Counted from the stretch's first letter, positions 2,584-47,813 are shown. The stretch is DNA of 64,000 bases from Vermamoeba vermiformis (GCA_045837725.1 JBEWZL010000278.1:1-64000), one strand, 5' to 3'. Numbers and translations are program-made. Notes: a model not told the origin generated them from the letters alone.

Positions 2584-5500
2584 ATGGATAGTCAAGGAGA
2601 GCTTCCGACCCTCCATCCGAACGTTGTGGAAGGTAAGTAATCAGAAAAATTCTAAAAATCGATTCTCCTCAAAAGGTGGATTATGTAATAATATTACAAT
2701 GGTCAAATTACTTGGCTGAGCCAGATTTACCGAAAAAATAAAATTCTACAATTTAAAGTCCTTTCAAGTTTCGTGTTAGATCATAATATAATTATTTTTA
2801 TCATACAGCCCCTGGCACAGTTTTGCAAGGACATGAGTCATTGAAAACTTCGCATACTTGGTGGAAAAAACCCGTCTCGCAGATCTTGCAAAAGAAGCAG
2901 CTCATAGAAAAATTATCTAAAGGATATGATACCAATTTCCCTCGAGCCGTTATTCAGTCTAGTGGTAAGTCTTATTAAAGATCAAGGAGTAACGCCTCAA
3001 AAATAAATTTCCGATTTAATTTTCCAGATTTAGCTCTTGAGGTCCGGGTTTGCTAACGGAGCACTAAATAATTATTCTAATTTTATTTTTATAGTTGCCC
3101 CTTCAGAGGAGGCCGTAACCGCCTGCCGTTTGATCACAAAATGTTTACAACTTCGAACAAAGTACGAGGCAGAGAATCCGTGCGTAGATCGCATGTTTAC
3201 GCTGGGAACATTTGATCCTATCATGCCGGCATCACAGGTATTAATATCAATCATGATCTTAATTTTAAATCAAACGGAATTGCCGTTTGTGCTCCGATCG
3301 TTTACTGAAAAATTTTAATGCAGCACACTATGAAGACTATTAACGGTATTATACACGCATTTGACGGTGAAACAGGTATGCTATAAAAATATGCTTTTAT
3401 AAGTTATTAATCTGTCTTATAGACGTTACACCGGTCATTAGTGTCGAAGATTATTTGCAAGACTACAAATTGTAAGGCTTTTAATGCTTTTTATTGTATT
3501 CTTAAGCTTAATTTGCTGAAATTTCATCATTTAGTGTCGTCGAGACTGATAATACTGGCCCTGCAAAGACGTTTTCGTACTTCCGTTTGAAGAGTTTGGA
3601 ATTCAAATTCGATTTTCATATTTTATTGAACGATTCGAGAGAACAATTGGCATCACAAGTAAGTATATATATGGTATAACAATCTATACATTTGCTTAAT
3701 CCCTCATGTTTTAGTGGGATCCGAAAGACTTCGAGTCCGTGACCAAGGTCGACACGCACATTCATTTGAGTGCTGCAATGACTTCAAAGCACCTATTGGA
3801 GTTTATTAAGAAGACTGTTAAAGAGCGTCCCGATGTGAGTATAAATCATTATTTGCGAGCATTATAGTGTTATTTATATGTGTTGCAGGATATCGTTAAT
3901 GTCACCAAAGACGGCAAGAAAGAAACTTTGAAAGACTTGTTTAATCGTCTTAACATTAACCCCGAGTACTTTACTTTGGACTCATTAGAGACTCGCGTAT
4001 GTATATATATAACAATCATAGTATTCATAACAAAGCAAGTTTGAAAAATTTGGATCCGGATCTGACGTTTTGGACAGGCTGGTGACACGTTCCAACGCTT
4101 CGACAAGTTTAATATGAAGTACAATCCATTTGGCAAAGGCGAGCTAAGAGATGTCTTCTTAAAGACGGCCAATGTGATTGAAGGCAAATATTACGCTGAC
4201 ATCACAAAGGAGTGCCTGAAGAAGATGGAGAAAAGCAAGTACCAAATGGCTGAGTACCGTGTATCGATCTACGGTCGTAAGGCGAGCGAGTGGGATGAAT
4301 TGGCCAAGTGGGTCGTGAACAACGATCTATTTTCAGCTCACAACCGTTGGGTCATTCAGTTCCCGAGAATTTTCTTCGTGTTGAAGAAAGTCGGTTTGAA
4401 GCACTTCCAAGAACTGCTCGAAAGTAAGATAACGATTTCAATCGTCGAATTCATTGCTAATATCTTCTCAGATATGTTCATGCCTTTGTTCGAAGTAACC
4501 CGGGATCCTTCTTCGCATCCGGATCTCCACAAGTTTTTGACTCATGTTTGCGCCTTTGATAGTGTCGATGATGAAAGCAGAGCTGAGCGTAAATTCGACG
4601 AAAAGTAAGCCTATTTGAGTAGGGAATGAAAATCTAACTGTGATTTCATAGTACGGCGAAGGTTTACCCTGAGAATTGGAACACGGAAGAAAATCCACCG
4701 TACGCGTACTACAATTACTATTTTTGGGCAAATATCACGGTTTTGAACAAGTTCCGAAGACTTCGTGGCATGAAACCGTTCGATTTCAGACCTCACTGCG
4801 GTGAATCTGGTGACTTGGACCATTTGGCCTCGAGTTTCTTGGTCGCCAAGCACATTAACCACGGCATCAATTTGGCCAAGACGCCAGTGCTGCAATATTT
4901 GTATTACTTGAAGCAGATTGGTCTCGCTGTTAGTCCGCTCAGCAACCACCAACTGTTCTTGCAGTACAAGGACAATCCTTTTGCACGGTTCTTCAAGAAA
5001 GGTCTTAACGTGTCATTGTCAACCGATGACCCTCTTCAGGTACGTCTTTCATGTCGTTTTAATATAGCACCCGGTGCTTATTGTCATTCAGTTCCATTAC
5101 ACGGAGGATCCGTTGCTCGAGGAGTACGCAATTGCAGCGCAAAGATGGAAGTTGGGCGTTTGTGATTTGTCAGAAATTGCACGCAACAGTGTCTTGCAAT
5201 CGAGTTTCGAGCACTCTGAAAAGATGAGATGGCTCGGACCTAATTACAAGAAAGAAGGATCTGACGGCAATGACATTCGGTTCACGAATATTCCTAACAT
5301 TCGTATTTGCTACCGTTACGAAACTTTGCAATCGGAACTCAACTTGCTCAAAAGGTACGCAAAAAAAAAAATTCGCTGAAAAAAACAACGATTTAATAAT
5401 ATCTGTCGTATAGATTCAGCACTTCTGGTCAAATGAGCCCTCGTGACATTTCAGTTAGCATGGAGACTACTGAAGCTTTGGGCAAAATTGTCGTTAAAAG

Positions 5501-8089
5501 TCCTCATCCAAGTACGCTTTACTCATCTTATCAAGTGGTTTTTCTGTGCTAATGTAATTATTCTAAGGTCCTGTTACTGATGAAGAAGAATTGGGCGCTC
5601 GCCGCTTGACCAGTGCATTAGAGTTGCGTCGAAAGTACAAACAGCCAATCATTACTAAAGCTAAAGTCGAAGGCCCTGGCTTCACGTCAGGCGTAAGTAA
5701 CGAAATTTCATATTTTTCATAGGAGCGGATCTAATCGTTACTGTTCAATAGTATACGTTCAGATCGCAAGGAGGTGTTTACTACGTGCGTGAATGCATCA
5801 CTGTTGGCGATAGAACGTTCGTTGATCCCACCGCACTCATCGTGTTGCCAAAGTACGCCGAGTTCATTCACGACTACAATAAGATCGTTGAGATATGCCA
5901 TTGCGGTCCTACTGGTACGAAAAAACTATTCAAAAGTGAGTTAGTAACTTAACGTTTTTATATTTGCAGCTACGTTGTCTCACATTCGTATGCGATTGAT
6001 GGAATATCGATTCGAGTTCCATACTTTGTTGAACGGTAGCCGCGAGTCTGACGCAATGAAGGTACCTATAATTGGAATATATGTAGTGCTCGGCAAGCTT
6101 ATTAACATTTTTATATAGAACTTGAAGTTGGACTACTATCATATGTACAAGGTTGATAACAACGTTCGATTGAACACTGGTATGGTCGCCAAACATTTGC
6201 TCAAGTTCATCAAGACCAAGATTAAGAACCATCCTCACGTAAGTCAATGACTATATTAGGCAAGTGCTCGTGATGTACTTACAATATTTCCTTTTTAGGA
6301 TATCGTGTACATGCACGGCGATAACCCTGTGACACTTCAAAAAGTGTTCGATGGCATGGGCATCACGCTTGAAAATTTGACGTTAGATTCGCTTGATGTC
6401 AAAGCTGAAGGCACTTTCCAACGCTACGACACGTTAGAAATGAAAACTAATCCGTTCGGAGTTGGAGAGCTGCAGACTTTGTTCTTGAAGTACGACAACT
6501 TCTCCAAGGGCAAGTACTTCGGTGAATTGGCGCGAGAGTTGTTGAGCAAGAAGAAGAAGACGCCGTATCACTTGTTCGAGTACAGATTGCCATTTTTGGG
6601 AAGGTAAAACTCGTCACGATCGATCGAAAGTATCAAACTTCACCTCGCTCATTTTATTTCCTTTTTTAGAAATCGTCGTGAATGGGATGACTTGGCCGAT
6701 TGGGTAGTAACTAATGGCTTGGATTCATCGCAAATCAACTGGGTCATTGAAATTCCTCGTGGCTACAAAGCGCTTAAAATGAATGGATCTGTTCATTCAT
6801 TCCAGGAACAATTGGACAGTAAGTAAATCGTTCTATCTACAATTTATATATCTAACATACTCTTATTAGACATTTTTGCGCCATTGTTCGAAGTCACTCA
6901 AGGTAAGAGAGGTTTTCAATAGTGGATCCGGATCTAATGAATTTTCTGCACAGATCCATCAACGCATCCAGCCTTGGCCCGCGTTATGCACAAAATTTCG
7001 GCGATTTCTATGATCCCTCACGAGCTCAACAGCTCTTCGACTCATCGCACGATCATTTCAGGAAATGTTTTGCCACGTGACTGGATCAACGACGATAACC
7101 CTTCTGTCGCGTACACGATGTACTACTTTTGGGCTAATTTGCAGTCATTGAACTCATTCAGAAAGAACTTGGGACTTTGTACGGACACTTTTTCTATATA
7201 TGGCAATTAGTCTAATTTCCATTTTTAGCTACGATCAAGTTTGTGCCTCAAAGCGGATTGAGCCTTGAAGTTTCTTCGGGCATTCCTATTGACGTTATGA
7301 TTTCATTCTTATTGGCCGATGGTACGACTCTCATTAACCAAATAAGGAAATAATCCCGTGCCTAACTTTTTTTTCTTTGCAGAAATCTCGCAAGGCATTG
7401 ACTTGGCGAAATCATCGACGCTTCAATATTTGTATTATTTGGCGCAGATCGGAATTTTCATCAGTCCACTCAGTGTCAATAATCTCGTGATCGATTACGA
7501 GAAAAATCCGTTCGAAAAGTTCTACAAACGAGGTCTGGCTGTCACTTTAGCGACTGAAAACCCACTTCAAATTCATATCACGAACGATCCTGTCGCTGAA
7601 GAGTACGCTATTGCTGCTCAGGTACGAAAACTTTTTAAAATCGAAGAGTCAAACCCTAACCCTCGACAAAAATTTTAAGCCGGCTAGCTAAAACTTTGCA
7701 GTTTTTTTACGAGGCTATTGAAATGTGTTACAGAGTGTATTTTAATTTTATTATGATGATTATTAACTTTGATTACTATATTTAGATGTGGAAATTCTCT
7801 ACGTGCGATTTGGCCGAAATTGCGCGCAACAGTGTTTTGCACTCTGGTTTTGACAAAGACGTCAAAACTAATCTCTTGGGCAAACACTACGAGAAAGAAG
7901 GTGTCGAGGGCAACGGTAAGTGCCGTGTTAATATAAGATATAATTATATGGAAGTTAATATTTGCGTTGCTAGATCCGTCGAAGACGAGTTTGCCCAACA
8001 TTCGTGTGAACTTCAGAAGCGAGGCCTGGCACCAAGAACACGAATTCTTACACAGCGTGGTCAATCATAAGTCCGTCGAATACCAGTAA
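2584..8089 (+). CDS. AMPD: AMP deaminase with two tandem AMPD domains (N-terminal intact, C-terminal degenerate)
   Basis: Domain 1 has [21 protein letters not shown] and SLSTDDPLQ. Domain 2 has [20 protein letters not shown] and TLATENPLQ. The linker exons at about 5415-5511 and 5568-5692 splice in frame. Stop TAA at 8087-8089. Confidence 0.9.
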
Positions 8090-8231
8090 AGGCTGAAAAA
8101 AAGCTGTCGATAAAAATCATGATCCGGATCACAAAAGGCCTAAAAAATGTTTTATTTTATTTTTTTAAGTAGTAAATTAAATTAGATTATCATCGATGTG
8201 AAATACTTGTTTATTACTGTCGTACTAGCGT

Positions 8232-9561
8232 TCAATGCTCAATACTGTCACGCAAGCCTTGCAAGAGGCTTAAACGTTCTTTAGATGAGCGCGCAAGACT
8301 GTCAAGTAAGAAATAAAAATTTGTCATTTTCTCCTCTGCGGTTGGATGTGAGTACTTTTGAAATCTTGCAAACTGATTGGCACTATCGTACAAACGAACT
8401 CCATCATCTCCGATCAAATATTGAAGCTTAAGAACGGTATGCAGTCCTCGGATTGTAGAAGGAACGTAACCATCATCACTATCATTATGGAACTCATTTG
8501 AGTAGCCGAAATCTTCATACTTGTGCAGACGGATTAGCAGACAATTTTCTAAAGGTTAAGAAAATTTTCATTAATAATAAGGACTCAATTATTCGTCCGT
8601 GTTCGAGCAATACATTAACATGGATTGGTTATTATGATACTGTTTTAAGATAAATACTACGTACCAAATAGCTCGTATGTTTTAACGTAGTCCGGATCTG
8701 CTTCGATAATTTCCTTGACATTCGATTGGACAATATGCAAGTTGAGCAATACAGTCGGATAATTTAAGTCAAAATTGACGGCAGTTGACGGCCAGTGCTT
8801 GACCTCGTAACAAGTACTGTCGGTCAAAAATTTCGCTGCAAAACACTGACAAATCTGCTCGTCGCCGCGAAGCCAGACAATGACTGACGTAAAAGATTAG
8901 TATGATACTGTATATATTCGACAATGAGAACTTACTTTTTGGTACCTTGAAGTTTTGTAACGCCGATGCGAGAAGATTTTCTTCGTTGGTCATCTTTTGT
9001 TTCTGTTCTTGAACCTGCATATCAAGTTTACTACGCTCTTCTTTTACGAGAAATTCAAATTTTCGTCTTTCGAGTGAGTCTAAATCTGCGACCAAGCTAT
9101 TCAAAAAGGACGGCAACGGAAAAAACTCCGATGTCCGGAGAGGTCTGTATTCGCTTTCCAACGAGTAAACTTCGTCGTGCGAGATCTTTTTCAGTTTTTC
9201 TTCCAATGCACGTTTGACATCAAGCAATCGGTCGTTTGCTCGGACTTTCTTCTTTTCAATGACCATTACATTTGATAGCATTTCTCCGAGCATTTTCCAT
9301 CCTTCTTCATCATTGGCGGATATCCTCGCCCACATTGATTTCCATAGTCGTCTCGCATCCGATTTGACACTTGGATCTGCAATTATTTCAAACTTTGGCC
9401 ATAATGCATTCTCAACCTCGGATTGTTTTTGTTTGCCATTTGGGCTAAACGCCCTCACAACGCTGCCTTATTTAACAAATTTAGACTTCGAAAAACGAAC
9501 GAGTAACCAACTTACTAACCAAGCTGCGTAAGAGGCCCTTGTCATGTTTTTCATCCGTCAT
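8232..9561 (-). CDS. Hypothetical protein: coiled coil plus C-terminal alpha/beta (possibly TIR-like) domain; left member of head-to-head pair 1
   Basis: Four exons splice in frame: MTDEKHDKGLLRSLV/SSVVRAFSP...coiled coil...KVPK/IIVWLRGDEQ...YEVKHW...LLNLHIV...YELF/ENCLLIRLHK...RDSIEH*. Confidence 0.7.
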
Positions 9562-9610
9562 TAGCTGAGTTTGAGCGAGAGTACTGTTGTAACCAGAATT
9601 TAAGCTCGGT

Positions 9611-9876
9611 GTTGCAATAGGAGAAGATCAATTGTTTTTTAAAGTTGACTGTTTTAACACGGCGAAGACTGCACGTTTTTGATTTCAACTTTCATAGTTC
9701 ACACAAATGGATTTTCGTCCATTGAAAATATACCGTGTTGATTTGGTCTTGCACAACCGTTTGTTTGATCGTTTTTGATTTGCCGTGTCGAAATTGTGTC
9801 ACAATTCTCCAACACGGCGTGTTGAAACTTAGTTCGGTTTGGAAATTTAAATAATACCTGTTTCAACACGGCAGAA
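9611..9876. promoter_or_regulatory. Duplicated intergenic element, copy 1; putative bidirectional promoter with clustered AACACGG motifs
   Basis: Homologous in direct orientation to 16437-16713. AACACGG or CCGTGTT at 9656, 9733, 9811 and 9865, with variant CCGTGTC at 9783. Lies between divergent start codons at 9561(-) and 9951(+). Confidence 0.75.
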
Positions 9877-9950
9877 GATCTTTCGTCTCTCCTTAAATAC
9901 GCGTACCTATTTAATTCGACAATATCAAACACTCGTTGGACAACTGCAGG

Positions 9951-10863
9951 ATGGGATCCGTTTTCTACGATGAAAGTACTCTTGACAAAATCATCGCTGA
10001 CGCCATAGATGACGTTATAGGATTGAAAAATGGCACCGATGACTTTGTTACGAGGATTATGGAGTTAAGAAATGCTATGAGCTCCGTGCGTACGAGATCC
10101 GAAGAATTCAAGTTGGCTACCAAAGAAAAATACGAAAGAACGAGAAAAGGAAAGGAACAAGAATTAGATTTCATATCCAGAAATGCATTTAAATATCCGA
10201 ATTCACTCCCAGGCAGTCAAAGATTATTCTGCTCCTGTACGATCCGATCAGACTACTCTTCGTCAGCCTCAAGTCCAACCTTCAGCTCGTATACCTCCGA
10301 AACACATCGCTGTCGAACGTCCTACAAGTAAGAAGTTGTAGCAATTATCCTTCGTTATCTAATAATTAAATCGATTATTATTGACAGAAACGAAAATTTA
10401 CGTCTCAAAAGGTGATTTTCCAAGCAGTATTACCCAAGAACTGCAAAAAATCAACTCTAATTTTGAATATGTCTTTTGGACCGATGATATGTCAGTTCCT
10501 AGTAACTCTTGGCTGTTGCACTTCGAAGACGTGGTTACTCGGCTTGACGACGAAGCACTTCCTAAGAAAATTAAGGACTTAGCCTTAAAATGGGGTATGT
10601 TTTTATATTTCAATATCCGGGCAGTAAATTTCATGTTTTTCTCAGAAAATCGCTTCGTCTTCGTTAAGTTGTACAAGGAGCGCGGAAGTGCTGTCGCAGA
10701 CTATCGTAACAATCAATACGAAAGCGAATTTCTTCCAGGAATAAGAGTAGCAAAAGGGATCTATCGCCTTAATGTGCGCGACAACGGAATCAGCAAATCA
10801 GTCTCGAAGGAAATTATCGATTCGTCTGAGCTTCGAACCATGTTTCAAACTATTGCTAAATAA
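9951..10863 (+). CDS. Hypothetical protein: helical N-terminus plus C-terminal alpha/beta (possibly TIR-like) domain; right member of pair 1 and distant paralogue of 8232-9561
   Basis: MGSVFYDE... then a Pro-rich linker, then /KTKIYVSKGD...FEYVFW...WLLHFEDVV...LKW/ENRFVFVKLYK...TIAK*. Joining the 5' ORF to the linker needs either an intron at 10090-10180 or a 1-nt frameshift near 10170. Confidence 0.65.
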
Positions 10864-11859
10864 ACGTTTAACGATGTTCGAGAAGTTGGTCGGTGAGTCC
10901 CACGCTGAGACAGATCTTTCAGGCCAGTCCTGGTGCAGACCAAAGCCGCGAATACGCATCGATATGTCGTACATGCCACTCGTGCGACTGTCCAGACCAT
11001 TCCAGAACTCGCGCATGAAGAACTGCCATGGCGAATAATAGCCTTGACGAGCAGTGTGATGCACATCAGTGGCTCGTCGCCGCACACTTTGGACTTGAGC
11101 CGTGGCATCAGTGCTCGGTTCGGCTGGTTCCGTAATTACTTGGACTAGCCTACAGCTTAATGACATAGTTACCGGTTTGAGCGCGATGGCATCGGATCTT
11201 GTCCCTAATAGGCATACGTAGGCTGCGGATCAAAGTTTGATGCACACCACGGTACGAAGGCCCAAAGCATTGAACTGCCCAAAGATAAGCTGTTACACCC
11301 ACATCGGCCGTATCAAGCAGTTAGTTCGTCTCTCTCCTTAATCCGTAGCACGAAAAGTTCTTGATCCGAGATTTGTTCTGCAACTCAAAAATTACGTCCT
11401 TACAAAACTGAAAAATATGAGCCATTTTTCGGGTATTTTATCCAGTTTCTGAATGTAAATATCGCACCGCAAAACGCGGATCGCATGCTTGAGTTTCTCC
11501 AAAACGATAGAAACGTGATCAGAAGCTTGAGCGTATCACGCAACTATTTTTGTTTTGATAACTCGGGCACGTCATAAGACTTACTTGACAAGTGGAACGT
11601 TCTTTGGAAGATCCACTCCAGGCGATAAAAGTGCTGCATCCAACAAGTTAATCGTGATTACGATTAAATCATAAATTTGTGGATATAAATATGATAAATT
11701 TGTTGATAATCAAAGAATTTATGGCCAGTACGCCCTTTTACGCAACAAAGTTATCAATAAGATTTTTCTCGTGACTTTTCTCCGCATAATAATGTTAGGG
11801 AAAAAAATCGCATAAAAGTGACATACGTCATCATTATTTCTCTTTTATCAGTCATCATC

Positions 11860-13273
11860 ATGAACGCTAAACTCATTGCCGTCCTGCTTTTGGGCTGCTT
11901 GGCTCTTAGCGCTTTGGCCGATTTCCGCGTGCCTTTGCAAAAGATCAAGCGATCTGCCGCTGAAGAGCGTGCTCGCATTATGAACGCCAAGGAGCGTGCT
12001 ATTAACAAGTACCTCGGAGGCACTAACCCCGTCGACACCTTCAAGAACTACGATGATGTAAGTAAATCAGAATATTTTAATAATATCTTTTTTGCTAAAT
12101 CTGCAATCCAGGTTGAATACATTGGTAACGTTACCATCGGTACTCCCGGCCAATCTTTCCGTGTTGTCTTCGACACTGGTAGCGCCAACCTCTGGGTTCC
12201 TGGCGTTAGCTGCAATGACTACGGCTGCCAAGGCAAGGCCAAGTACAACTCAAAGAAGTCCTCCACCTACCAATCCAACGGTGAGTCCATCTCCATCCAA
12301 TACGGAACTGGCTCCATGGACGGTTTCTTGGACGTCGACAATGTTGGTATTGCTGGAACTACCGTTGCTGGTCAAGTTTTCGGTGAGGCCACTGATCTTG
12401 CTGACTTCTTCAACGTAAGTATTGACGCGTTTACGAAATCGAATATTATTACGGTCATAATTTTTAAATCAAGCTATAATAGAACCGCAAATCAGAGTTC
12501 CTAAATTTAAGCACAAATCTAATAATTTTTTTAGGGTCAACCTATGGACGGCATTCTCGGTTTGGCTTACCCCGCCATTGCTGCCGATTATGTTACCCCC
12601 GTCTTCGACGCTGATGATCAGCCAAAGCCTCGTCTCTCAACCCATCTTTGGTGTCTTCTTGGACTCCAACCCTGGTGATCGCCAATCTGCCATTGATTTC
12701 GGTGAGTAGCATTATTTTCCTTGCGCGCTATCGAATTTAATTCAACACTTATCTTCATTCAAGCTTAAGATACTATCGTCAGATTATTTTTAAAATTATG
12801 TTATTTTGACACTCGCATCTGCAGGAACCATCGATTCTACCAAGTTCACTGGTTCTCTCCAATACGAGCCTGTTGTTTCTCAAGACTACTGGACCGTCAA
12901 GTTGACTGAAGTCAGCGTCAACGGTAACGACGTCTCTGGCTGCCAAAATGGCGGATCTGGATGCCGTGCCATCGTCGACACTGGTACTTCTTTGATCATT
13001 GGCCCCACTGCCGCCGTCAACGCAATGAACATCAACGTTGACCCTGGCTGCAGCGGTATTGACAAATTGCCCGTTATCACCATCAAGATGAAGAAGTTGA
13101 CCTTCAAGATCCCTCCCAAGTACTACGTTATCAAGTCTGAGGGCCAATGCTTCTTTGGTATCCAAGGTGCTGATGGTTTGCCTTTCTGGATTTTGGGCGA
13201 CACCTTCATTCGTGCTTACTACACCCTCTTCGATCGTGGTCAAAACCAAATCGGTTTTGCCCCCGTCAAGTAA
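11860..13273 (+). CDS. Pepsin/cathepsin D-like aspartic protease (family A1), secreted; apparent +1 frameshift at 12610
   Basis: Signal peptide and propeptide, catalytic motifs VVFDTGS and AIVDTGTS, flap YGTGS, DGILGLAY and WILGDTFIR. An extra G at 12610 breaks VFD|LMISQSLV. Confidence 0.93.
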
Positions 13274-13545
13274 ATCTGATCGAGGATCTACAAGACAAGC
13301 ATTTGCGCTTTATTCCTAGCTGTTCTGAATAGTAGGGTAAAGAGTAAATGTGTCCCTTACAAACGCAGGTTTAGTGGCTTTGTGAATTTGCGAATAAAAA
13401 CACTTTTGAAAATCAAATCTGTTGCTCGGTCAAAACTCAATTTTAATAATTAAACGATAAAAAAAAAAAAATCAAAATAAATTTGATGTAGTCATGCCGG
13501 CGCTTACAGAAGCATTATCACAAGCGGATTGCGGATAAAAACCTG

Positions 13546-16362
13546 TTATGCGTGTTCAGGTTCGGCAATTGCAATGCACTCAGCACCTTCTTGCTTGAAC
13601 ATGATGTGCTTCACTCTAAAGTTGTCCAGTTGCTTCGGCTTAATCACGGCACCATGACACAAGAAGACAAAGCCAGTTGGTACTTCGATATCCTTGGTCA
13701 TTATCTCTTCAAGTTGACGCAACGTCATTGACTTTTCCACAATACAAGCGCCGAGGGACGACTTGTCCTTGTTGTTCAACACTACCAACGGAAACTGGTC
13801 CTTTAAAAATATCCGCATTAGCTTTCGTGAGTGCTGTTAAGTGTCACTTACGGAGGCCAGATCCGATGCTGTCAAGTCAGAAAGTACGAGGTCAGTCACG
13901 ACAATTGTGTCTTGGTTCACGAGGCAGGCTACAATTGCGGTGTTAGCTTCCTCTAGGAATGGCACAGGAGTGTTTTGAGGCTTCAAGAATTGAAAGCCTT
14001 TAAGTTCGATCTCTTCTTCAATAAGTTTTCTGAGGTCTGACAATGTGACGTGCTTCGGCTCGACCAGTACAGCACCCTCAGGCTTGCCATCCTTGATGAT
14101 AGTAAGAGTGTCGGGTACTGTCAAGTCAATGTCAACAGGGACTTGTTGAAGGGTTTTGGAGGCAGCACGTGGTATGACTGTGACGGTCCAGTAGCTGTAA
14201 GTGTTGTCTGATTTCGCGACACGTGTCAATGCAGTGCATTCTTCAGCGTTAACGGGAGTTTCAGACGCTTGTTGGTTGACAAAGACGAAGTCCTTGAGGC
14301 TCGGAATGCACTGCAAAATTCTTTCACGAATGACGTCTAATGTCGTCTCTGAGGCCCCATCAAAAGTAGCCGTTCCAATTACATCGCCTTTGGTATCTTC
14401 AACGATAATGTGCTTCTTCAAGTCGTTGGCGATCTTGGTGTTAGCAAATTGAATGGCAGCATGGAACGCGTTGAGTGCCAGCTTCTCACGGACCCACTCT
14501 GGTTTAGAATATTGACCAGTGTAGTTCATGACGGGGAAGATGTTTGTTAGCGGTATCTTCGTTCGAGTGCTGAACTCTTGGATGTGAGAGTCGATAATAC
14601 CAGTGTCAAAAATTGCTTCAAGTTTGCCGGTAATATCTGCTTCCGGAACCAAGTCAGGCTTAGTAAGAATCACAATGGGTTGGTATCCTTTGCTTGTCAT
14701 TCTGCCAACAATACGATTAATTTGATGACGATTAATTTGATGTGAAAAAATAAGGCAAAGATTTGAAACTCTTACTTGGCGAAGAATTTCTTCAACTCGT
14801 CAATGTGCGAATCCGTATAGATTGACGGCATTTCGTAGACAATGATTACTGCATGAACGCGATCACCGACAGTAGGCTCCTTGTTAAGCGATTTGAGCAG
14901 GTCTGAGTTCTCTTTGTAGCCGTCTCTGAGTGCGCCGTCAAGGAAAAACTCAAGCTCCTGGGACCACGAGTCACCACCTTTCCAGCCATACGTGTCGCAT
15001 AGTCTAATGGCGTTATTGCGATTGTTCTTCAAGAAACGTTTTCTGATCTCCAAGGTCACCGTCGTGATGTCGCTCTTGGTCAGTTGAGGCTCGTCATAAG
15101 ATCCGTTCATGATCGACCAGATGGTGTTGAAGAAGGCGGACTTGCCGTTGCCAATACGACCGAGAAGGGCAATGTTCAAGTAATCAATGCCAAAGTGCTT
15201 AAGCTCCGAGGGAACAGCGTAACATTCGAGCTTTTCGACCATTTTCCGAACTCTGTCTGGAAGATCTCGTCCTTGCAAAACAGCCGTTTCGGGATTTTCT
15301 GCAGTTGAAAATATTAATTGACTGTTTACGAAAACAAATGAATAGCTTGTTTTTACCTCGTAAAGTACGAATCTCAGTCACTTCTGACCAGCCAGTAACA
15401 GCAGTGCCATTGATTGCTTTGCCTCGAAGACTGTAAACGGAATTCGGCTCCAATCCAGTTGCGTAAAAGACATTCGACTCGGCAAATCCAAATGGAGTCC
15501 ATTTGTTGCTATTCTCCCGCAAGATTTCAATATCAACCCTTGTAAAGGGAGTGCTTGACACTATGTCAAACGATGCTTGTTTCGAACTGCGCGTTCGAGG
15601 GTTGATCTCAGGGGGACATCCTGGCTTGACGGACAGATACGAGACGACAAGACTCATCTCGCTAAAGTCATTGACGAAGATTGCGTGATCTGAGAGGGCC
15701 ATGACAGCTGTCTCGGTGTTGCCGCTTAAACCAACTCCGATCGAGATCAACGTGATATTTTTCTGCAGAAAACAGAAATTGTGTTATTTTTCAAAGTTCC
15801 GTGAAATTCACAACGTACCTGGGTCAAATTCGCTTGGATGGCTTGCGCACCGCTGACGTCGCCGTCAGTCATCAGCACAATAGTCTTGTGGCAATTGTTT
15901 CTATCATCAGCAGCGAACATATTGATACATGTTGTTAAAGCCAAGCCTGCGTTGGTCCCTCCTCTTCTTTGTGGTGTTGAAACAACGGCTGTGTTGAAAG
16001 CTAGTGCATCAGCAGTCAAGTGGCTAATCACGTAGACTCCGTTGTCAAATTGAAGCTATGGATATGAAGATATTAAGCAATATAATGAACTATAATAAGG
16101 CATTCTTACTCCTCCAACGCGGTAACTTGGATCCTCAACATTTTTCAGGCCTAAGTAGTTGACCAAAGTTCGGATGCAGAACTTCATCGTCTCCCATTGA
16201 TGAACTTGGACCGAACCCGAGCCATCCACCGCCTGAATATCATATAAGTACGAATGTCGAACTTCGCATACAACTTACAAATAAGATATCTTGCGGAGTA
16301 GCAAGGCCAGTGAATGCTCTCTGCAGTAGATCCGCTTTTTGCTCAACGGTAAGTCTGTTCAT
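13546..16362 (-). CDS. VWA - FN3 - IFI44-like P-loop GTPase - three ubiquitin-like repeats; left member of head-to-head pair 2
   Basis: VWA MIDAS DILFAVDGSGS, GGTN and VLMTDG. FN3 GLEPNSVYSLR..N...WS. GTPase G1 LLGRIGNGKS, G3 LCDTYG, DRVHAVIIV, G4 ILTKPD and IFPVMNY, as in the IFI44 family. Three C-terminal repeats of pattern G...TL..(I/L)R..I...F.F(L/V). Confidence 0.8.
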
Positions 16363-16436
16363 GCTAATCTACTAGGCTTAAATAAGTAGGGTGGTTGTAT
16401 TTAATACGTTGTGTTGTAATAGATCTTCGCGATTAA

Positions 16437-16713
16437 GTTGCAATAGAATAAGATTGAAATTGTTTTTAAAGTTGACTTTTTCCAACACGGCGAGGACTGC
16501 ACGTTTTTCATTTCAACTTTCACAGTTCACAAAAATGGGTTTTCGTCTATTGAAATTATACCGTGTTGATTTGGGTCTTGCACAACCGTTTGTTTGATCG
16601 TTTTTGATTTGCCGTGTTGAAATTTGTCACAATTCTCCAACACGGCGTGTTAGAAACTTTCATTTGGAAATATCGAACTAAGTTTCAATTAAACCTGTGT
16701 CAACACGGCAGAA
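16437..16713. promoter_or_regulatory. Duplicated intergenic element, copy 2; putative bidirectional promoter with clustered AACACGG motifs
   Basis: Homologous to 9611-9876. Motifs at 16484, 16561, 16612, 16639 and 16702, plus one more at 16734. Lies between divergent starts 16362(-) and 16790(+). Confidence 0.75.
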
Positions 16714-16789
16714 AATCATTCAATTGATTCATCAACACGGTAGGCGATTAAAGGTCTCAAAGTTTTAAACTGAAAAGAAGCAACAAACA

Positions 16790-17758
16790 ATGGCTGAGCA
16801 ACCGATTGAAACTACCCCTGTAGCGCCGCAAGACGAGTCTTCTAAAGCAAAAGAATTTGTACAATTATGGGTAGCAGAATCCTATACTTTGAACAGCAAT
16901 GACCTCACTACGTTCACTCTAGAATCGATAATCAAATATATGCATAATGGTTCTCGTTCGTACTTACAAAAAGTACCGGATCTAGAAAAATCTATTAAAG
17001 AAAATGCAAGGATGAAAGGCGAATTGAAAAGAAAGCAAGACTCCTTGCACGATAAACTAAACCGCATCGCTAAGGAGGTGGCTCTTATTGAAGAAGACGC
17101 AAATTCGTGCCAATCACAAGCAATTTCTAAGTGCAACGAAATTGACCGAAAAATTCAAGAGCAAAAAAACGAGTACGAAGAGAAATTACGCAAGGAAAAG
17201 ACGAAGCAGTTAGAAGAGGTCAAAAGACAAACAGAGCACTTGTATCGAGCTATGAAATGCGAGCAAATGAAGATGCTCGATCAATATCAAGAACAAATTG
17301 TGCAGGAAGAGAAGGAATGGCAAAACCTCGTTAAGTTAAGCGAATCCAAGAAAAAATGGCGCTCAATGGCCGAATTTAACATACCAGAGCGAGAAAGAGC
17401 AGATCAAATTAATGTGGAACGAAATAACGTTGAATTTAAATTGATCGTAACGGAATCGGAAGAGATCCTGGACGAAATAAAAATGCCAGAACTTACAGTA
17501 AAAGCCGAGGAGCCAGTCATAGCACCAGTGAAGTACATCAGTGTTAAGACCAAATCGGACGGTCAGCTGGTTGCCACAGTAGCCGTCAATCAGAGCGAAT
17601 TGTCAAGTTTGAAACTGGCCGGATTTAGAGCTCTCGCCAATGAGTTGCCGACCGACTTCACATTTCTATTCAAAGGAGCACCAATACGGCTTGGACAAGA
17701 ATCGAAATTTGCGTTGAAGCAGGTGCTGGATGGAGATAACGTTTGGATCAAGAACTGA
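16790..17758 (+). CDS. Intronless coiled-coil protein with C-terminal ubiquitin-like domain; right member of pair 2
   Basis: 322-aa ORF with a long E/K/Q-rich coiled coil. The C-terminal ISVKTKSDGQLVATVAV...LPTDFTFLFKGAPIRLGQESKF resembles repeat 3 of the partner (VPTGFVFLCHGAVIKPKQLDNF). Confidence 0.85.
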   Translation: MAEQPIETTPVAPQDESSKAKEFVQLWVAESYTLNSNDLTTFTLESIIKYMHNGSRSYLQKVPDLEKSIKENARMKGELKRKQDSLHDKLNRIAKEVALIEEDANSCQSQAISKCNEIDRKIQEQKNEYEEKLRKEKTKQLEEVKRQTEHLYRAMKCEQMKMLDQYQEQIVQEEKEWQNLVKLSESKKKWRSMAEFNIPERERADQINVERNNVEFKLIVTESEEILDEIKMPELTVKAEEPVIAPVKYISVKTKSDGQLVATVAVNQSELSSLKLAGFRALANELPTDFTFLFKGAPIRLGQESKFALKQVLDGDNVWIKN

Positions 17759-18236
17759 TCAAATTATTTTTAATTAATTGCAGCCAAAAATTTAAAAATT
17801 ATAAAGAGTAGCTGAATTATATTAGAGTACACTTGGTTATCATACCAAAAATAAAATCCGAGCTAACGGTACCTTTGATTAATTTTTGGAGCAAATCTCG
17901 AAGCTATCTGTTCTTTGAACGCGTACGTATAGCCCTTAACGTATTGCAGCGTATGCAGTGTATTTGGCTCGAAAAGTCAAAGCTTGCGCTGCTTGTTTAG
18001 TCTAAGCTTGTGGTTCTGAACATCGCTTGAAAAGCAGCAGTTGCCTTTTGCTCGCAACTACCCGGATCGTCATGCAGAGGTAATTAGCCAAACGAACGTG
18101 CGTTCTAACTCGCATGTTTTGCGAGAACAGTAAGAAATGGCATACCCGTTGATTAATTTTGGTAATTTTGACCGAACAAGAATTTGCAAAGGCGCCAATT
18201 TTATTCTCATCACCTACAACTTATTGTACACAACAA

Positions 18237-20179
18237 ATGGGTAAGAAAATCTTATCTTGTTCTAAAATTAATTAGAAACAACGTAAAATTATCAGTCCAC
18301 TCAAGTCCTACCTTTTGGATAACAAGAGCTGACCTTTTTTTTAAAATTATTCAACTTTTAAAATTATTCCTGCAGCTGATTTTAATATGCATCGGTTTAC
18401 TGCAGAGTCTTGGAATATTTTAGAAATTTTACCGCCGGAAGTAATGATTCTGGTATTTTCGAATCTGGAGCCTGAAGATATCGTATCATCCTTATCGGTT
18501 AGCAAGCTATGGAATGCATTACATAATGGATTTAATTGGAAAGAAGCATTTAAAGTTACTTTTGGAGAGTTACCAGAGTCGGTGGATCTTTCTCAAAAAT
18601 TAAATTGGCGAAAACTCGTATGATTGCTAATTCACAATACGCCTTAGATATATTATTAATTATTTTTATTCAAAATAGTTTTTCGACTGCAAAACTCTGT
18701 CGTCGCTCACCAAATCCAGGAGGAAATTTAAGCCGCTCCTCGTTTCTTTCGGCAATCCTAAGAAAACGATACCATTTAGCGTTGAATTGATGACGAAAGA
18801 CAATGTTCTTTACAAACATAATGACGGATTTTATTTGATTGATCTACGGTAAGAAATTCATCGGAGTTGATATTACGTAAACGACGTAGGAAATTAATTG
18901 GTACGTACATTTTTAGAGCATTAAAAGATGACCCGTCAATTTCCAAGGAGAAACTTATACCCTCAACGGCAGTACTGCCCTGGATCAAGGGTTTTTTCCA
19001 TTACAATACAACCAATCCTATTATCAAATTTTCTGGGAGTATTAAGTTAAGCTATCCAGGTTATTATCGAAATGTTTTTCTATTCTGGAACTTTAAAAAA
19101 GGAAGCAAAGCCCTGAATAGTATTATTTTGCCTTCCTCTTTTCCAGAAAGAGTTCACTCATACACGTCCCATCATTACGTCAATTCCAAATATTTTCTCG
19201 TAAGTAACTGATCTAACGCTTACGGATTATAATTATTAATTACCATCTTTGTTAGTGGAAGTGTCGTCAGTATGGATGCTTAATCGATACAACTAAGAGG
19301 TGCTATCATTATTGTAACTTTGAAAAACGAGGACAAACTTACGAACGAGAAAATTACCCAAGTGTCTGCGAGAACAAGGAGTACATTCTAATAATTATAT
19401 ATTATATTATTATTAACGTTTAATTTATTTACAGGAAGTGCGCAGTAATTGAAACTTGGGACGATTACGATTGGTATCCGTTTCTAAGCGAACAAGATCC
19501 GGATCTCATCGTTGGCATTCGAGTTAACAAAGATAAACAATACGAGCTAGTACAATCGCGTATCGGACAACAAAAAAACGTACAAGTGCTCTCTCAAGCT
19601 TCGGGATCTGCCATAATCCAGGTCGGATCCGAACACGTAATTAAGTCAAGAAGAAAGATCGTACGGCATTGGTTCTCGTTTGAAATCAACGCAGATCTAT
19701 ATTTTATCGACTTAATGGATACTAGTCGCAAAATTAAGATGTCGCTAGATATGTACGACTGGATCCCAAACGAAAGTAAGCAAAAATTTAAAAACTAAGA
19801 ATTCGAGATTAATTTTGACGGTCGATAGGCAAAGTAATATTGTGGAAGAAGAATATTATAATCATGTATGATTTAGAAAATGCTCTGAGGTGTTCCAAGA
19901 TGACCTTCAAAGATTCGGTCCTTGATTTTTCAATATTGCCTAGCCACGGTTTTATTGCTGTTCTGGAAGCCAATCGCAAATACGTTACGGTAAGCTTTTA
20001 ATACGACAATTTAATATGAAGGTTGTTTCTAAGCCGTTTTATAGATTTGTCATTTGGAAACAGCTATGAAAGGGCGATCGATTGACGTTTCAGAATACAA
20101 GCCTACTAAGATTACATTAGTCTCGGAAAAGCTGTTATTTATAACAAACGGCAGAGATTTACATTACTTGCCATTGTAA
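18237..20179 (+). CDS. F-box protein with beta-rich (possibly propeller) C-terminus
   Basis: M/ESWNILEILPPEVMILVFSNLEPEDIVSSLSVSKLWN is an F-box. Multi-exon; the last exon ends ...DLHYLPL* at 20179. Confidence 0.8.
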
Positions 20180-29291: not shown

Positions 29292-30301
29292 ATGCGCTCT
29301 GTCAGCCATCTTGCAGTAGCCTTCGTGCTCGTGGCACTTTCGTGTGCTTTGACCAGCTACGCCGGTGTTGCTTGGACCGGAGTTAACTTGTCCGGAGGAG
29401 AGTTTGGTAAGCTCTATTTAACGCAGTATTATCCATATTTATAAACTCTTTTAGGTGGTCAGTCGATCTGGCCCTACACCACTGACATGGATTACTTCGT
29501 CAACAAAGGCATGAACATTTTCAGAATTCCATTTGACTGGACCAGAATACAACCCTCGCCTAATGGTGAGCTCAACGCTTCTGAGCTCAACGCGTTAGAT
29601 GCTCTCGTTCAATACGCGACTGTTACAAAAGGAGTTTACGTCGTTCTGGATGTGCACAAGTAAGTCAGACTAATTCAGGATTATTATTTTTAGCACGGAT
29701 CTAACTATCTTATTAAAGCTATGCCCGTTATAACGGTCTTATTATTGGCCTTGGTATTCCATACTCAAGTTTTGCGGATCTTTGGACCAGATTGGCCACG
29801 AAGTACAAAACCAACTCAAAAGTCGTAAGTTTACGATTATTACTAATTCCGTAAGAAATTGAATCAAAGATTTACCGTAATTTTAATGCGGAATATCACA
29901 TTTTTCGATATAACAGCCGCCTTCACTAACGATGTATTAGCTCTTCGGCCTTATGAATGAGCCTTATAGCATGCCCAATAAGTAAGTTATCGATTTCTTA
30001 CAAAGATTCTGATGCACGTGTTTCTTTCAAGTGTTTGGCGTGACGGCGCACAAGCTGCTGTGACCGCAATCCGAGCAACTGGTGCTACGAACTACATCTT
30101 AGTTCCAGGTATATTACCATTTATATATAGATAGTACTCGACACCTTCTAACGATTATAGGTAATGCCTGGACCGGAGCTCATTCTTGGTTGGGTACTTA
30201 TTACGACCAAGGTGCCAACCCACAACGATCAAACGGTCAAGTTATGCTTGAAGTTTACGATCCTGCAAACAAAATGATCTTTGAAGTGCATCAATACTTT
30301 G
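29292..30301 (+). pseudogene. GH5 endoglucanase copy 3, 3'-truncated
   Basis: Intact signal peptide through LMNEP and FEVHQYF with the same intron positions as copies 1 and 2. No downstream exon encoding GEFG, the CBM or the tail is found before the next gene. Confidence 0.75.
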
Positions 30302-30536
30302 GTAAGGCTTTCATAGACCGTGTAAAAAAGTCAATCATAGTGCGGGATTCGTGCACGGAAAAAATTTTGATCCAGGCACATAATCCTACATGTTGCAGGC
30401 AAATGGAATATCTATATGCTTACAAATTTAGTTATGCTGCAAGTAATATTTAAGGATATCCTTCTCCTGTCTCCGCGGATGATGTGACGTTAAGGCAGGG
30501 TCATAAAGTTTCACAACCGATTCGCTGAATTTTGCG

Positions 30537-47713: not shown

Positions 47714-47813
47714 NNNNNNNNNNNNNNNNNNNNNNNNNNNNNNNNNNNNNNNNNNNNNNNNNNNNNNNNNNNNNNNNNNNNNNNNNNNNNNNNNNNNNNN
47801 NNNNNNNNNNNNN
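47714..47813. other. Assembly gap (100 N) at the symmetry axis of the inverted duplication
   Basis: Run of N bases. Both flanks end within about 20 nt of the same position of the same gene. Confidence 0.99.

Follow-up and report, generated by a model that had tools for sequence, protein, structure and literature searches.

A copied intergenic element as a candidate common switch for two divergent gene pairs in Vermamoeba vermiformis

Two head-to-head gene pairs of Vermamoeba vermiformis, located 6.8 kb apart in the 64-kb window (the whole stretch of 64,000 nucleotides that was analysed), each hold in their intergenic gap one copy of the same ~280-bp element with a cluster of 11-bp motifs, and the four genes are probably placed under a common switch by this copied element. 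With a probability of roughly one half, the element is a duplicated upstream activating module that gives all four genes (g1 to g4) one regulatory input. If it does drive the four genes, the locus would be a clean natural case of rewiring by the copying of a whole bidirectional promoter module, and the 11-bp motif would provide a handle, in a eukaryote that has received little study, for identifying the factor responsible and the other genes of its regulon.

Two divergent gene pairs and the element between them

Pair 1 comprises g1 (8232..9561, minus strand) and g2 (9951..10863, plus strand), and pair 2 comprises g3 (13546..16362, minus strand) and g4 (16790..17758, plus strand). In our own spliced models, which were predicted from the sequence, the ATG-to-ATG gap is 389 bp in pair 1 and 427 bp in pair 2; both are divergent promoter arrangements, with genes on opposite strands and starts less than 1 kb apart. 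These models reproduce the outer coordinates of the four genes given in an earlier, sequence-only reading of this DNA, and its statement that the two pairs differ in protein sequence also holds, all cross-pair comparisons being at the shuffle level (z between -0.34 and 0.66). An aspartic protease gene sits between the two pairs and an AMP deaminase gene lies ~3 kb past the 3' end of g1; the locus is therefore not a defence island, and its neighbours are housekeeping genes.

Copy 1 of the element (9611..9884) is separated by 49 bp from the start codon of g1 and by 66 bp from that of g2; for copy 2 (16437..16722), the distances to the start codons of g3 and g4 are 74 and 67 bp, respectively. Neither copy is assigned to a strand, and the two have the same orientation, one per head-to-head gap. 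The homology between the gaps that had been claimed is borne out by a repeat search, which links the copies through four collinear blocks of 117, 54, 42 and 32 nt (85, 96, 83 and 94% identity, respectively) at a spacing of 6828-6837 bp and finds only these two copies in the 64-kb window. The alignment of the core is 290 columns long, of which 33 are substitutions and 20 contain gaps; the identity is 87.8% with gaps left out and reaches 90-100% in the central ~170 bp (windows starting at 9658-9807). Toward the edges it falls gradually, roughly from 0.95 through 0.7 and 0.5 to 0.35, such that exact ends cannot be set. The element nearly fills both gaps, leaving a non-homologous flank of 49-74 bp before each ATG, and A/T-rich, TATA-like strings, as judged by eye, are present in every flank.

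A cluster of 11-bp motifs

The motif YCRACACGGYR occurs five times in each copy of the element, at matching positions and with the strand order + - - + +. In copy 1, the sites are at 9654-9664 (plus strand; the variant TTAACACGGCG), 9731-9741 (minus), 9781-9791 (minus), 9809-9819 (plus) and 9863-9873 (plus), with start-to-start distances of 77, 50, 28 and 54 bp. In copy 2, they start at 16482 (plus), 16559 (minus), 16610 (minus), 16637 (plus) and 16700 (plus), and an extra, sixth site (16732-16742, plus) is found just beyond the homologous core, the distances among the six being 77, 51, 27, 63 and 32 bp. The five shared sites align column for column between the copies with near-identical spacing, and site 5 is an island of 90% identity amid stretches of 35-60%.

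All 10 matches to YCRACACGGYR in the 64-kb window are inside the two elements or gaps, compared with 0.22 expected; the pattern was derived from the element itself, and the informative part of this count is the zero matches elsewhere in the window. For the motif 8-mers, 7 of 9 and 9 of 11 window matches are inside the two elements. Motif columns are identical between the copies at 52 of 55 positions versus 185 of 235 elsewhere in the element (Fisher p 0.006), a comparison that is partly circular, since the two copies being compared are also those whose matches revealed the sites. The motif does not match any identifiable transcription-factor site, and a full-text literature search with the motif 8-mer showed no regulatory element among the titles of the matches listed. 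The spacers between the sites are themselves 79% identical (185/235 columns), and the likeness of the two elements therefore mostly reflects a fairly recent copy rather than long-term selection.

Probable common control of the four genes and alternative explanations

The shared element resembles a group of binding sites, and it is therefore reasonable to infer that g1-g4 receive a common regulatory input. The element appears to sit between the separate core promoters of both divergent pairs, and the putative YCRACACGGYR sites would most likely be occupied by a single sequence-specific DNA-binding factor which, once bound, would drive transcription outward in both directions and so provide the same input to g1, g2, g3 and g4. 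The flanking genes being unrelated, the ~280 bp would have arrived at its second site not through gene duplication but through gene conversion or a small ectopic duplication of the module, a step that shares the roughly even odds of the reading to which it belongs; in the same reading, g3 and g4 may associate through ubiquitin-like (UBL) domains of one family.

The yeast GAL1-GAL10 and histone gene pairs consist of divergent genes with a shared upstream activating sequence that contains several copies of one factor's site. The arrangement in Vermamoeba is similar in that the genes are head-to-head within less than 1 kb, with repeated sites, apparently for one factor, between two core promoters, and in that divergent pairs with different protein products have the same site cluster. 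The difference is that the two loci studied here have 88% identity across the entire ~280-bp module, spacers included, which points to a recent physical copy of a promoter as opposed to convergent gain of sites. In the available part of a yeast study (PMC4551913), most divergent pairs that include cell-cycle or stress genes are differentially regulated, and therefore a shared intergenic region does not guarantee co-expression.

The recent-copy signature, namely the 79% identity of the spacers, would also be expected of a dispersed repeat, be it a SINE-like sequence, a solo-LTR fragment or a non-autonomous transposon, that landed in two gaps, with any regulation being incidental, and the unrelated flanking genes indicate that the ~280 bp moved alone. 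However, such a repeat is hard to reconcile with the absence of terminal inverted repeats: the region 7500-18500 contains no inverted pairs of at least 30 nt, the hallmark sought for a MITE, and the inverted pairs of at least 10 nt in the homologous core are internal copies of the motif, with none at the element ends. The homology fades out at the edges instead of ending sharply, the 64 kb contain no further copy, and the same orientation, the placement in head-to-head gaps and the distance of 49-74 bp from each ATG make an unlikely outcome of random landings. Collections of metagenome and viral contigs gave no exact match to a conserved 24-mer from the element, which argues weakly in the same direction inasmuch as the organism may be absent from both of them. 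Taking these observations together, we regard a dispersed repeat as unlikely, albeit worth keeping in mind.

A structured non-coding RNA or structural DNA, such as a replication origin or an insulator, in place of a cluster of factor sites, would agree with the finding that the element folds somewhat better than shuffled sequences on both strands (z -2.27, with 7 of 200 shuffles as good, and z -2.64, with 1 of 200). The extra stability is strand-symmetric, though, and comes from the inverted motif copies, as DNA-level symmetry predicts; Rfam yields 0 matches at E<=1, no tRNA was found, and 1 of the 68 predicted pairs is changed on both sides, in a test that has no power with two sequences. Such a nature of the element appears highly improbable.

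The orphan proteins of pair 1

The g1 gene is an orphan protein-coding gene, predicted to be spliced from four exons (9561-9516, 9466-8936, 8883-8665 and 8548-8232) and to encode 370 aa; its introns are 49, 52 and 116 nt long, with GTAAGT/GTACGT donors and AG acceptors. The three large exons match no Pfam family at E<=1, a search with exon 2 gave no longer homologue, and the PDB sequence search with exon 3 (E<=10) returned one, unrelated match. The g2 gene is likewise an orphan, encoding 271 aa in two exons (9951-10327, whose Ser-rich 3' end is uncertain, and 10425-10863) separated by a 97-nt intron with a TACTAAC-like branch site. It has no Pfam match, and its exon 2 has no PDB sequence match (E<=10); the best Atlas score, 0.87, is under the usable level, and the AF2 model, with a pLDDT of 38.6, is unusable.

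The partners of pair 1 had been thought to share a C-terminal domain, but their comparison is at the level of chance (best BLASTP E 2.2; z -0.09, with 1014 of 2000 shuffles as good). Nor could the TIR domain that had been suggested be recovered: no TIR family matches at E<=1 in 10 exon translations of g1-g4, the C-terminal domain of g1, which is split by an intron, having been searched exon by exon. Pair 1 encodes two lineage-restricted orphan proteins and is tied to pair 2 by the element alone.

The multidomain GTPase encoded by g3

The g3 gene has seven exons (16362-16279, 16232-16110, 16055-15819, 15762-15357, 15298-14776, 14701-13852 and 13800-13546) and encodes an 825-aa protein with the domain order vWA, FN3-like, GTPase and three UBL domains. 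Residues 5-821 align to residues 4-816 of the 817-aa protein P0055 with 52% identity, and the alignment is unbroken at every exon junction of g3.

The vWA domain (15819..16362, minus strand) covers exons 1-3 and continues into exon 4. Exon 3 alone exceeds the cut-offs of two Pfam families (VWA_2, 30.8 bits with a cut-off of 27; VWA, 24.5 bits with a cut-off of 23.8), exon 2 contains the MIDAS-type (DxSxS) motif DGSGS, and in this region the profile of the g3 family matches collagen VI and integrin I domains; VWA is present in 5 of 7 relatives. The FN3-like domain (15357..15762, minus strand; exon 4) gives a weak Pfam fn3 match (E 0.056), and the family profile matches the FN3 chain 9ot8 (E 1.3e-6). 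The P-loop GTPase domain (14425..15298, minus strand, with approximate boundaries) occupies exon 5 and the first third of exon 6 and carries the motifs GRIGNGKS (G1), DTYG (G3) and TKPD (G4). It matches Pfam MMR_HSR1 (24.2 bits, cut-off 21.9) and, weakly, IIGP, AIG1 and Septin, and the family profile matches Septin-2 (E 1.9e-6) and IIGP1 (E 3.5e-6) over the G domain; by sequence, this is a TRAFAC-class GTPase of the septin/IRG/GIMAP-like kind.

The three tandem UBL domains (13552..14418, minus strand), delineated with a repeat profile, are at 14191-14418 (A), 13906-14115 (B) and 13552-13800 (C). Units A and B are modelled by AF2 with a pLDDT of about 80-90, and the top Foldseek matches of the UBLs are all chains of ubiquitin (including di-ubiquitin), ISG15, FAT10, the USP7 UBL or OASL (E 4e-5 to 1e-3). 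Structural superposition with VIA-align gave a Z of about 7 (7.1) and an rmsd of 2.7-2.8 A over 69-73 residues, a Z below 8 being, by the tool's own warning, one that can reflect a common arrangement.

The UBL of g4 and its possible association with g3

The single exon of g4 encodes 322 aa, of which the N-terminal two thirds are charged and helical and the C-terminal part contains a UBL (aa 252-313, nt 17543-17728) assigned by sequence profile. The repeat profile of the g3 UBLs, built without g4, finds residues 252-313 of g4 at 13.3 bits, compared with 11.7 for the best of 1000 shuffles, and among 960 ORFs of the window g4 is its only match outside g3 (E 0.0036). Direct comparison of g3 and g4 agrees with this (BLASTP, 41% identity over 29 aa, E 4.8e-4; Smith-Waterman, z 5.9, with 0 of 2000 shuffles as good). 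The earlier notion of a shared C-terminal domain within each pair is thus correct for pair 2, where both g3 and g4 have a UBL, but not for pair 1. The termini of g3 and g4 lack a C-terminal di-glycine, and because neither ends in this way, the two proteins are unlikely to be conjugatable modifiers.

Complex prediction for UBL-C of g3 with the C-terminus of g4 scored 0.54, with 0.01 for the best control, and the tool's verdict is 'weak support'; at least 95% of contacts are the same across runs, and the partner pLDDT is at least 80. Of 78 solved complexes, 51 reach the mark for this prediction, as do 2 of 108 mismatched pairs, and scores of 0.60 or below include only 5 of the 78 solved complexes yet all 4 mismatches that passed. 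Scores in the range that includes 0.54 are, according to the tool, wrong more often than they are right, and the predicted UBL-UBL packing could be recall of solved di-ubiquitin-like structures. With respect to the proposal that the partners heterodimerise through a shared domain, pair 2 offers a UBL in both proteins and the modelled contact, whereas pair 1 has no detectable shared domain to dimerise through. Pair 2 is a plausible functional unit, and g3 and g4 may associate through their UBLs.

In a close relative, the g4-like protein P0001 is 89% identical across the first 59% of g4, and P0001 and the g3-like protein P0003 each list one contig of 23,070 bp; this record fits conservation of the g3-g4 adjacency.

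Comparison with known systems

The sequence-only reading took the locus for an infection-induced regulon of four genes for cell-autonomous immunity, in which each pair would heterodimerise through its shared C-terminal domain as plant NLR pairs do. The control element common to both pairs is compatible with this proposal, as are the similarity of the GTPase of the g3 relative P0002 to IFI44-like Atlas clusters, the family profile matches to IIGP1 and septin, the resemblance of the tandem UBLs to ISG15 and OASL, the UBL that g3 and g4 have in common together with their weakly supported complex (0.54 versus 0.01), and the repetition of a small adaptor domain in the adjacent gene of bacterial vWA-centred conflict systems (described in the available part of PMC7159879). 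However, pair 1 has no detectable shared domain, family assignment or TIR domain, g3 has neither a STAND NTPase nor a TLDc domain, the neighbours are housekeeping genes, and likeness of fold or features to interferon-induced proteins does not show immune function. We consider such a regulon distinctly unlikely, and an immune role of the four genes is speculative.

Plant sensor/helper NLRs are encoded as head-to-head pairs, and the likeness to the present locus consists in divergent transcription from a short shared promoter region. The analogy fails with regard to the defining STAND NTPase, which is missing: no NB-ARC or NACHT family is matched in Pfam by the 10 scanned exons of g1-g4, LRRs are likewise absent from these exons, no TIR is found, and the GTPase of g3 is, as noted above, of the septin/IRG class.

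In bacterial vWA-MoxR ternary systems, the effector-associated domain (EAD) of the large vWA protein recurs in the adjacent product, with homotypic contacts proposed, and some bacterial vWA conflict systems carry GTPases of the GIMAP/septin clade (both in the available part of PMC7159879). Similarly, the small UBL domain of g3 recurs in the adjacent g4 product, whereas the bacterial systems are prokaryotic operons with MoxR ATPases and defined effectors, and the present pair belongs to an intron-containing eukaryote and has a UBL in common, with no effector domain recognisable in g4. It would be a long shot to suppose that a portable bidirectional module, copied from one promoter to another, wires the orphan pair, the g3-type sensor with its IFI44-like GTPase and a helical partner with a UBL into one inducible programme of protist cell-autonomous defence or stress, with the partner recruited by UBL-UBL contact, as a eukaryotic counterpart of the bacterial EAD logic. 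With g3 and a neighbour that has the same UBL, adaptor-domain pairing between the products of adjacent eukaryotic genes can be put to the test.

The label of an IFI44-family GTPase, previously attached to g3, reflects feature likeness. With the GTPase region of P0002 as the query, the nearest Atlas clusters bear the automatic name 'interferon-induced protein 44-like' (206 of 256 features in common, at a score of 0.95; the IFI44-like set makes up 16 of the 30 matches), a language-model feature similarity that involves no alignment and pertains to P0002, not to g3. To our knowledge, interferon is absent from protists. The Pfam family that the g3 domain matches, MMR_HSR1, is a generic one. No IFI44 chain was matched in PDB sequence searches, and no TLD family was found either in the five scanned exons of g3, at E<=1, or, at E<=0.01 or E<=0.1, in the 13 relatives that were scanned. 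The available part of PMC5614904 ascribes a putative TLDc domain to IFI44; g3 instead has vWA and FN3 before the GTPase, and three UBLs after it, which distinguishes it from both IFI44 and IFI44L.

Septin-2 and IIGP1/Irga6 are matched by the family profile over the G domain, with its G1, G3 and G4 motifs, and Pfam adds weak matches to IIGP, AIG1 (of the GIMAP/AIG1 clade) and Septin, but the matches span about 80-90 residues around the P-loop, the architecture of g3 is different and there is no IRG helical domain. The tandem beta-grasp UBLs of g3 have the same fold as ISG15, FAT10 and OASL, and follow an enzyme-like domain as in OASL, although the sequence identity is 9-16% and g3 and g4 lack the di-glycine end. 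The combination of vWA, FN3, a septin/IRG-class GTPase and tandem UBLs in g3 appears to be an uncharacterised eukaryotic architecture, and at least 33 relatives of this protein are detectable, including transcripts from Physarum and from a marine protist survey.

Two divergent gene pairs with a duplicated intergenic element

Splice-aware open reading frame modeling delineated four genes in two head-to-head pairs: g1 (8232-9561, minus strand, 4 exons, 370 aa) and g2 (9951-10863, plus strand, 2 exons, 271 aa, the 3' end of exon 1 being uncertain) in pair 1, and g3 (13546-16362, minus strand, 7 exons, 825 aa) and g4 (16790-17758, plus strand, a single exon, 322 aa) in pair 2. The outer coordinates of all four models match exactly those proposed in the sequence-only reading. 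Introns in the window are of the eukaryotic style, 46-116 nt long, with GTAAGT...AG boundaries and TACTAA-like branch sites. The g3 model is validated at the level of sequence comparison: its residues 5-821 align with 52% identity to residues 4-816 of a database relative, P0055, and the alignment runs uninterrupted across all exon junctions; P0055 is 817 aa long and comes from source contigs no longer than 2,570 nt, probably transcripts. The N-terminus of g4 is 89% identical to P0001, a protein of a close relative. Homolog support is confined to g3 and g4, and the g1 and g2 models are predicted. Database searches were run exon by exon, which lowers the sensitivity for intron-split domains, notably the C-terminal domain of g1.

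The ATG-to-ATG gaps span 389 bp in pair 1 and 427 bp in pair 2. A direct-repeat search detected four collinear blocks linking the gaps (117, 54, 42 and 32 nt, with 85, 96, 83 and 94% identity, respectively), set 6828-6837 bp apart. The presence of homologous elements in both gaps, proposed from the sequence alone, is thus borne out: the homologous core, 9611-9884 in copy 1 and 16437-16722 in copy 2, comprises 290 alignment columns with 33 substitutions and 20 gap columns, that is, 87.8% identity without gaps. Both copies have the same orientation; identity reaches 90-100% in 20-column windows starting at 9658-9807 and declines gradually at both edges. Non-homologous sequence of 49-74 bp separates the element from each of the four start codons, and each of these flanks contains A/T-rich, TATA-like strings, as judged by eye in the alignment; hence each gene seems to have kept its own core promoter, with the common part in between.

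A word of 11 bp, YCRACACGGYR, forms the framework of the element: its 10 matches on either strand of the window all lie inside the two copies, compared to 0.22 expected from shuffles. Of the 9 and 11 window matches of the 8-mers AACACGGC and CAACACGG, 7 and 9, respectively, are inside the copies. Copy 1 carries five motif sites, including one variant; copy 2 has counterparts of all five and adds a sixth at the edge. The common sites are in register in every alignment column, run + - - + + and start 77, 50/51, 28/27 and 54/63 bp apart (copy 1/copy 2). Identical columns are more frequent in the motif sites than elsewhere (52 of 55 versus 185 of 235; Fisher p 0.006), a test with some circularity, the sites having been recognized in the same two copies. 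Independent of this test, site 5 forms an island of 90% identity amid stretches of 35-60%. Among the titles listed in a literature search for the 8-mer motif, none concerns a regulatory element. By eye, a near-perfect 15-bp palindrome, AATTGTG.CACAATT, is apparent at 9792-9806 of copy 1, between sites 3 and 4, and its counterpart in copy 2 (16620-16633) is imperfect owing to a 1-bp deletion; this palindrome could represent a binding site of another type.

Domain architecture of g3 and its relatives

Searches with single exons of g3 against Pfam identified a vWA domain (VWA_2, 30.8 bits, cut-off 27; VWA, 24.5 bits, cut-off 23.8), a weak FN3 signal and a P-loop GTPase domain (MMR_HSR1, 24.2 bits, cut-off 21.9, along with weak matches to IIGP, AIG1 and Septin). 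In the modeled protein, a MIDAS-type motif (DGSGS) is present along with GRIGNGKS, DTYG and TKPD of the G domain. Searched exhaustively with HMMER, the 283-aa exon of g3 retrieved 33 relatives at E<=1e-3, 11 of them at E<=1e-10; vWA is present in 5 of the 7 longer relatives that were aligned. Named relatives comprise one transcript each from Physarum polycephalum and MMETSP, a bivalve G-domain protein and one giant protein of Arcobacter, the last of which is probably an unrelated domain match. Among solved structures, the g3-family profile matches FN3 (E 1.3e-6), Septin-2 (E 1.9e-6) and IIGP1 (E 3.5e-6). In metagenomes, a g3-family protein pattern matched 157 stretches, none of which was confirmed by tblastn.

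These results place g3 among the septin/IRG/GIMAP-like GTPases. The proposal that it belongs to the IFI44 family stands only as a likeness of features: in the Atlas, the clusters nearest to the G region of the g3 relative P0002 are labeled 'interferon-induced protein 44-like' (0.95; 206 of 256 features), which is a lead and not an alignment. The name IFI44 is absent from the source names of the 23 relatives checked. IFI44 has been described with a TLDc domain (PMC5614904); unlike IFI44, g3 lacks TLDc. Similarly, unlike the NLRs, g3 falls outside the STAND class.

In P0034, a g3 relative without vWA, C-terminal residues 602-645 match Pfam KHA with 26.6 bits, below the cut-off of 29.6. This lead to a dimerization domain was dropped because the profile of the ubiquitin-like unit described below has no match in P0034 at E<=1.

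A ubiquitin-like domain common to g3 and g4

Downstream of the GTPase domain, g3 contains three copies of a repeat of about 80 aa. In an AlphaFold2 model built from a 7-row alignment (mean pLDDT 70.6, rising to about 80-90 within the two repeats that it covers), the repeat adopts the topology beta-beta-alpha-beta-alpha-beta-beta. Foldseek ranks ISG15, linear di-ubiquitin, FAT10, the UBLs of USP7 and the tandem UBL of OASL highest (36 matches at E<=1e-3), and ubiquitin-like domains also head the results of an independent all-against-representatives alignment, with a Z of 7.1 and an rmsd of 2.7-2.8 A across 69-73 residues, with the proviso that Z below 8 can reflect a common arrangement. Because the two methods agree and the match list is uniformly ubiquitin-like, the assignment of the modeled repeats to the ubiquitin-like (UBL) fold is sound.

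The claim that the partners in each pair share a C-terminal domain is supported for pair 2 but not for pair 1. BLASTP aligns g3 and g4 at 41% identity over 29 aa (E 4.8e-4), and their Smith-Waterman score has a z of 5.9, with none of 2000 shuffles as good. A UBL profile, built from 15 repeat units of g3 and five relatives, with g4 and the 93%-identical, g3-like P0003 left out, matches residues 252-313 of g4 with 13.3 bits, compared to 11.7 for the best of 1000 shuffles. When this profile was run against all 960 stop-to-stop ORFs of the window (at least 35 aa), g4 was the sole match beyond the g3 exons (E 0.0036); the profile also detects units in relatives outside its build set. In pair 1, the best BLASTP E value between g1 and g2 is 2.2, their C-terminal halves score like the average shuffle (z -0.09), with 1014 of 2000 shuffles doing equally well, and the UBL profile matches neither protein.

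Complex prediction for the last UBL of g3 (UBL-C) and the C-terminus of g4 returned 'weak support', with a score of 0.54 versus 0.01 for the best control. At least 95% of the contacts agree between runs and partner pLDDT is at least 80. Of 78 solved complexes, 51 attain this mark, as do 2 of 108 mismatched pairs; at scores of 0.60 or below, however, just 5 of the 78 attain it, along with all 4 mismatches that passed. Familiarity of the predictor with di-ubiquitin-like structures could also account for the pass. For P0001 (g4-like) and P0003 (g3-like) alike, one 23,070-bp contig is recorded, which fits, and does not prove, conserved adjacency of g3 and g4 in a close relative. The database proteins P0056 and P0057 are carried by a contig of 581,853 bp. 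The g3/g4 UBL pairing is real and testable.

Searches with the exons of g1 and g2 yielded no Pfam family at E<=1, one chance-level match aside, and no sequence relatives in the PDB. No longer homolog of g1 exon 2 was found, the best Atlas score for g2 was 0.87, with low recognition and no usable neighbor, and a single-sequence AlphaFold2 model of g2 exon 2 was unusable (pLDDT 38.6).

Possible function and origin of the element

The reading we favor, with a probability of about one half, is that the element acts as an upstream activating module and has been duplicated. In it, five sites for a single DNA-binding factor would form a homotypic cluster that lies between separate core promoters, feeds both genes of each pair and so provides a single input common to g1, g2, g3 and g4. 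Since the spacers agree at 79% whereas unrelated genes flank the two copies, the module itself was copied, by a small ectopic duplication or gene conversion; the better preservation of the motif sites and the conserved spacing suggest that the element is in use. We infer co-regulation of the four genes, and in pair 2, g4 might additionally associate with g3 through the common UBL. The yeast GAL1-GAL10 and histone pairs are divergent pairs with a common activating sequence, and the present arrangement would work in the same manner; unlike in these yeast pairs, the whole module here appears to be a recent physical copy common to unrelated pairs. According to PMC4551913, most yeast divergent pairs with cell-cycle or stress genes are differentially regulated.

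Homology between the gaps would also be seen if the two copies belonged to a dispersed repeat, an unlikely origin given that the element has no terminal inverted repeats, the inverted pairs in the core being internal motif copies, and that the 64-kb window contains no third copy; a conserved 24-mer of the element had no matches in a metagenome scan or in a viral contig scan. An RNA or structural element appears very unlikely: the element does fold moderately better than shuffles on the two strands (z -2.27 and -2.64), but this is expected because motif copies are inverted, and there is neither an Rfam match at E<=1 nor a tRNA in the element, covariation having no power with two sequences.

The sequence-only reading proposed a four-gene regulon, possibly of cell-autonomous immunity, with IFI44-family GTPases and TIR domains cited as immune-associated. 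This full model appears quite improbable; the immune regulon, the TIR domain and domain sharing in pair 1 are all unsupported by what could be checked, and no TIR family is found among the Pfam matches of the exons of the four genes, the intron-split C-terminal domain of g1 having been searched in two pieces. The duplicated promoter itself is real and testable. With respect to pair 2, effector-associated domains have been described in bacterial vWA-centered conflict systems (PMC7159879), and the large vWA-GTPase g3 next to g4 with the same small domain resembles them. Neither the present arrangement nor a vWA-FN3-GTPase-UBL architecture was described in anything listed by the literature searches, supplementary files being outside their reach.

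Genomic neighborhood

The neighborhood is not a defense gene cluster, since a pepsin-type aspartic protease gene (about 11860-13273, plus strand; Pfam Asp, E 1.8e-35 and 5.8e-36), with two DTG active-site motifs and an apparent signal peptide, sits between the two pairs, and AMP deaminase exons (4066-5162, plus strand; Pfam AMP_deaminase, E 2.1e-63 and 1.1e-64) are located nearby. Farther along, a gene is tandemly triplicated (22131-24331, 25235-27300 and 29376-30311; spacing of about 3.1 and 4.1 kb, blocks of 66-93% identity); one ORF of its second copy (26745-27164) has no Pfam match at E<=0.001, and this copy is followed by a proline/threonine/valine-rich repeat (27411-27601). The second half of the window, from 32139 to its end at 64000, is filled by a giant, near-perfect inverted repeat centered near 47755, the arms of which contain at least 25 collinear segments at 91-100% complementarity; it may reflect a true palindromic duplication or be an artifact of assembly. 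An ORF with a SPRY domain (32022-32654, minus strand; E 8.8e-7) lies at the edge of this palindrome.
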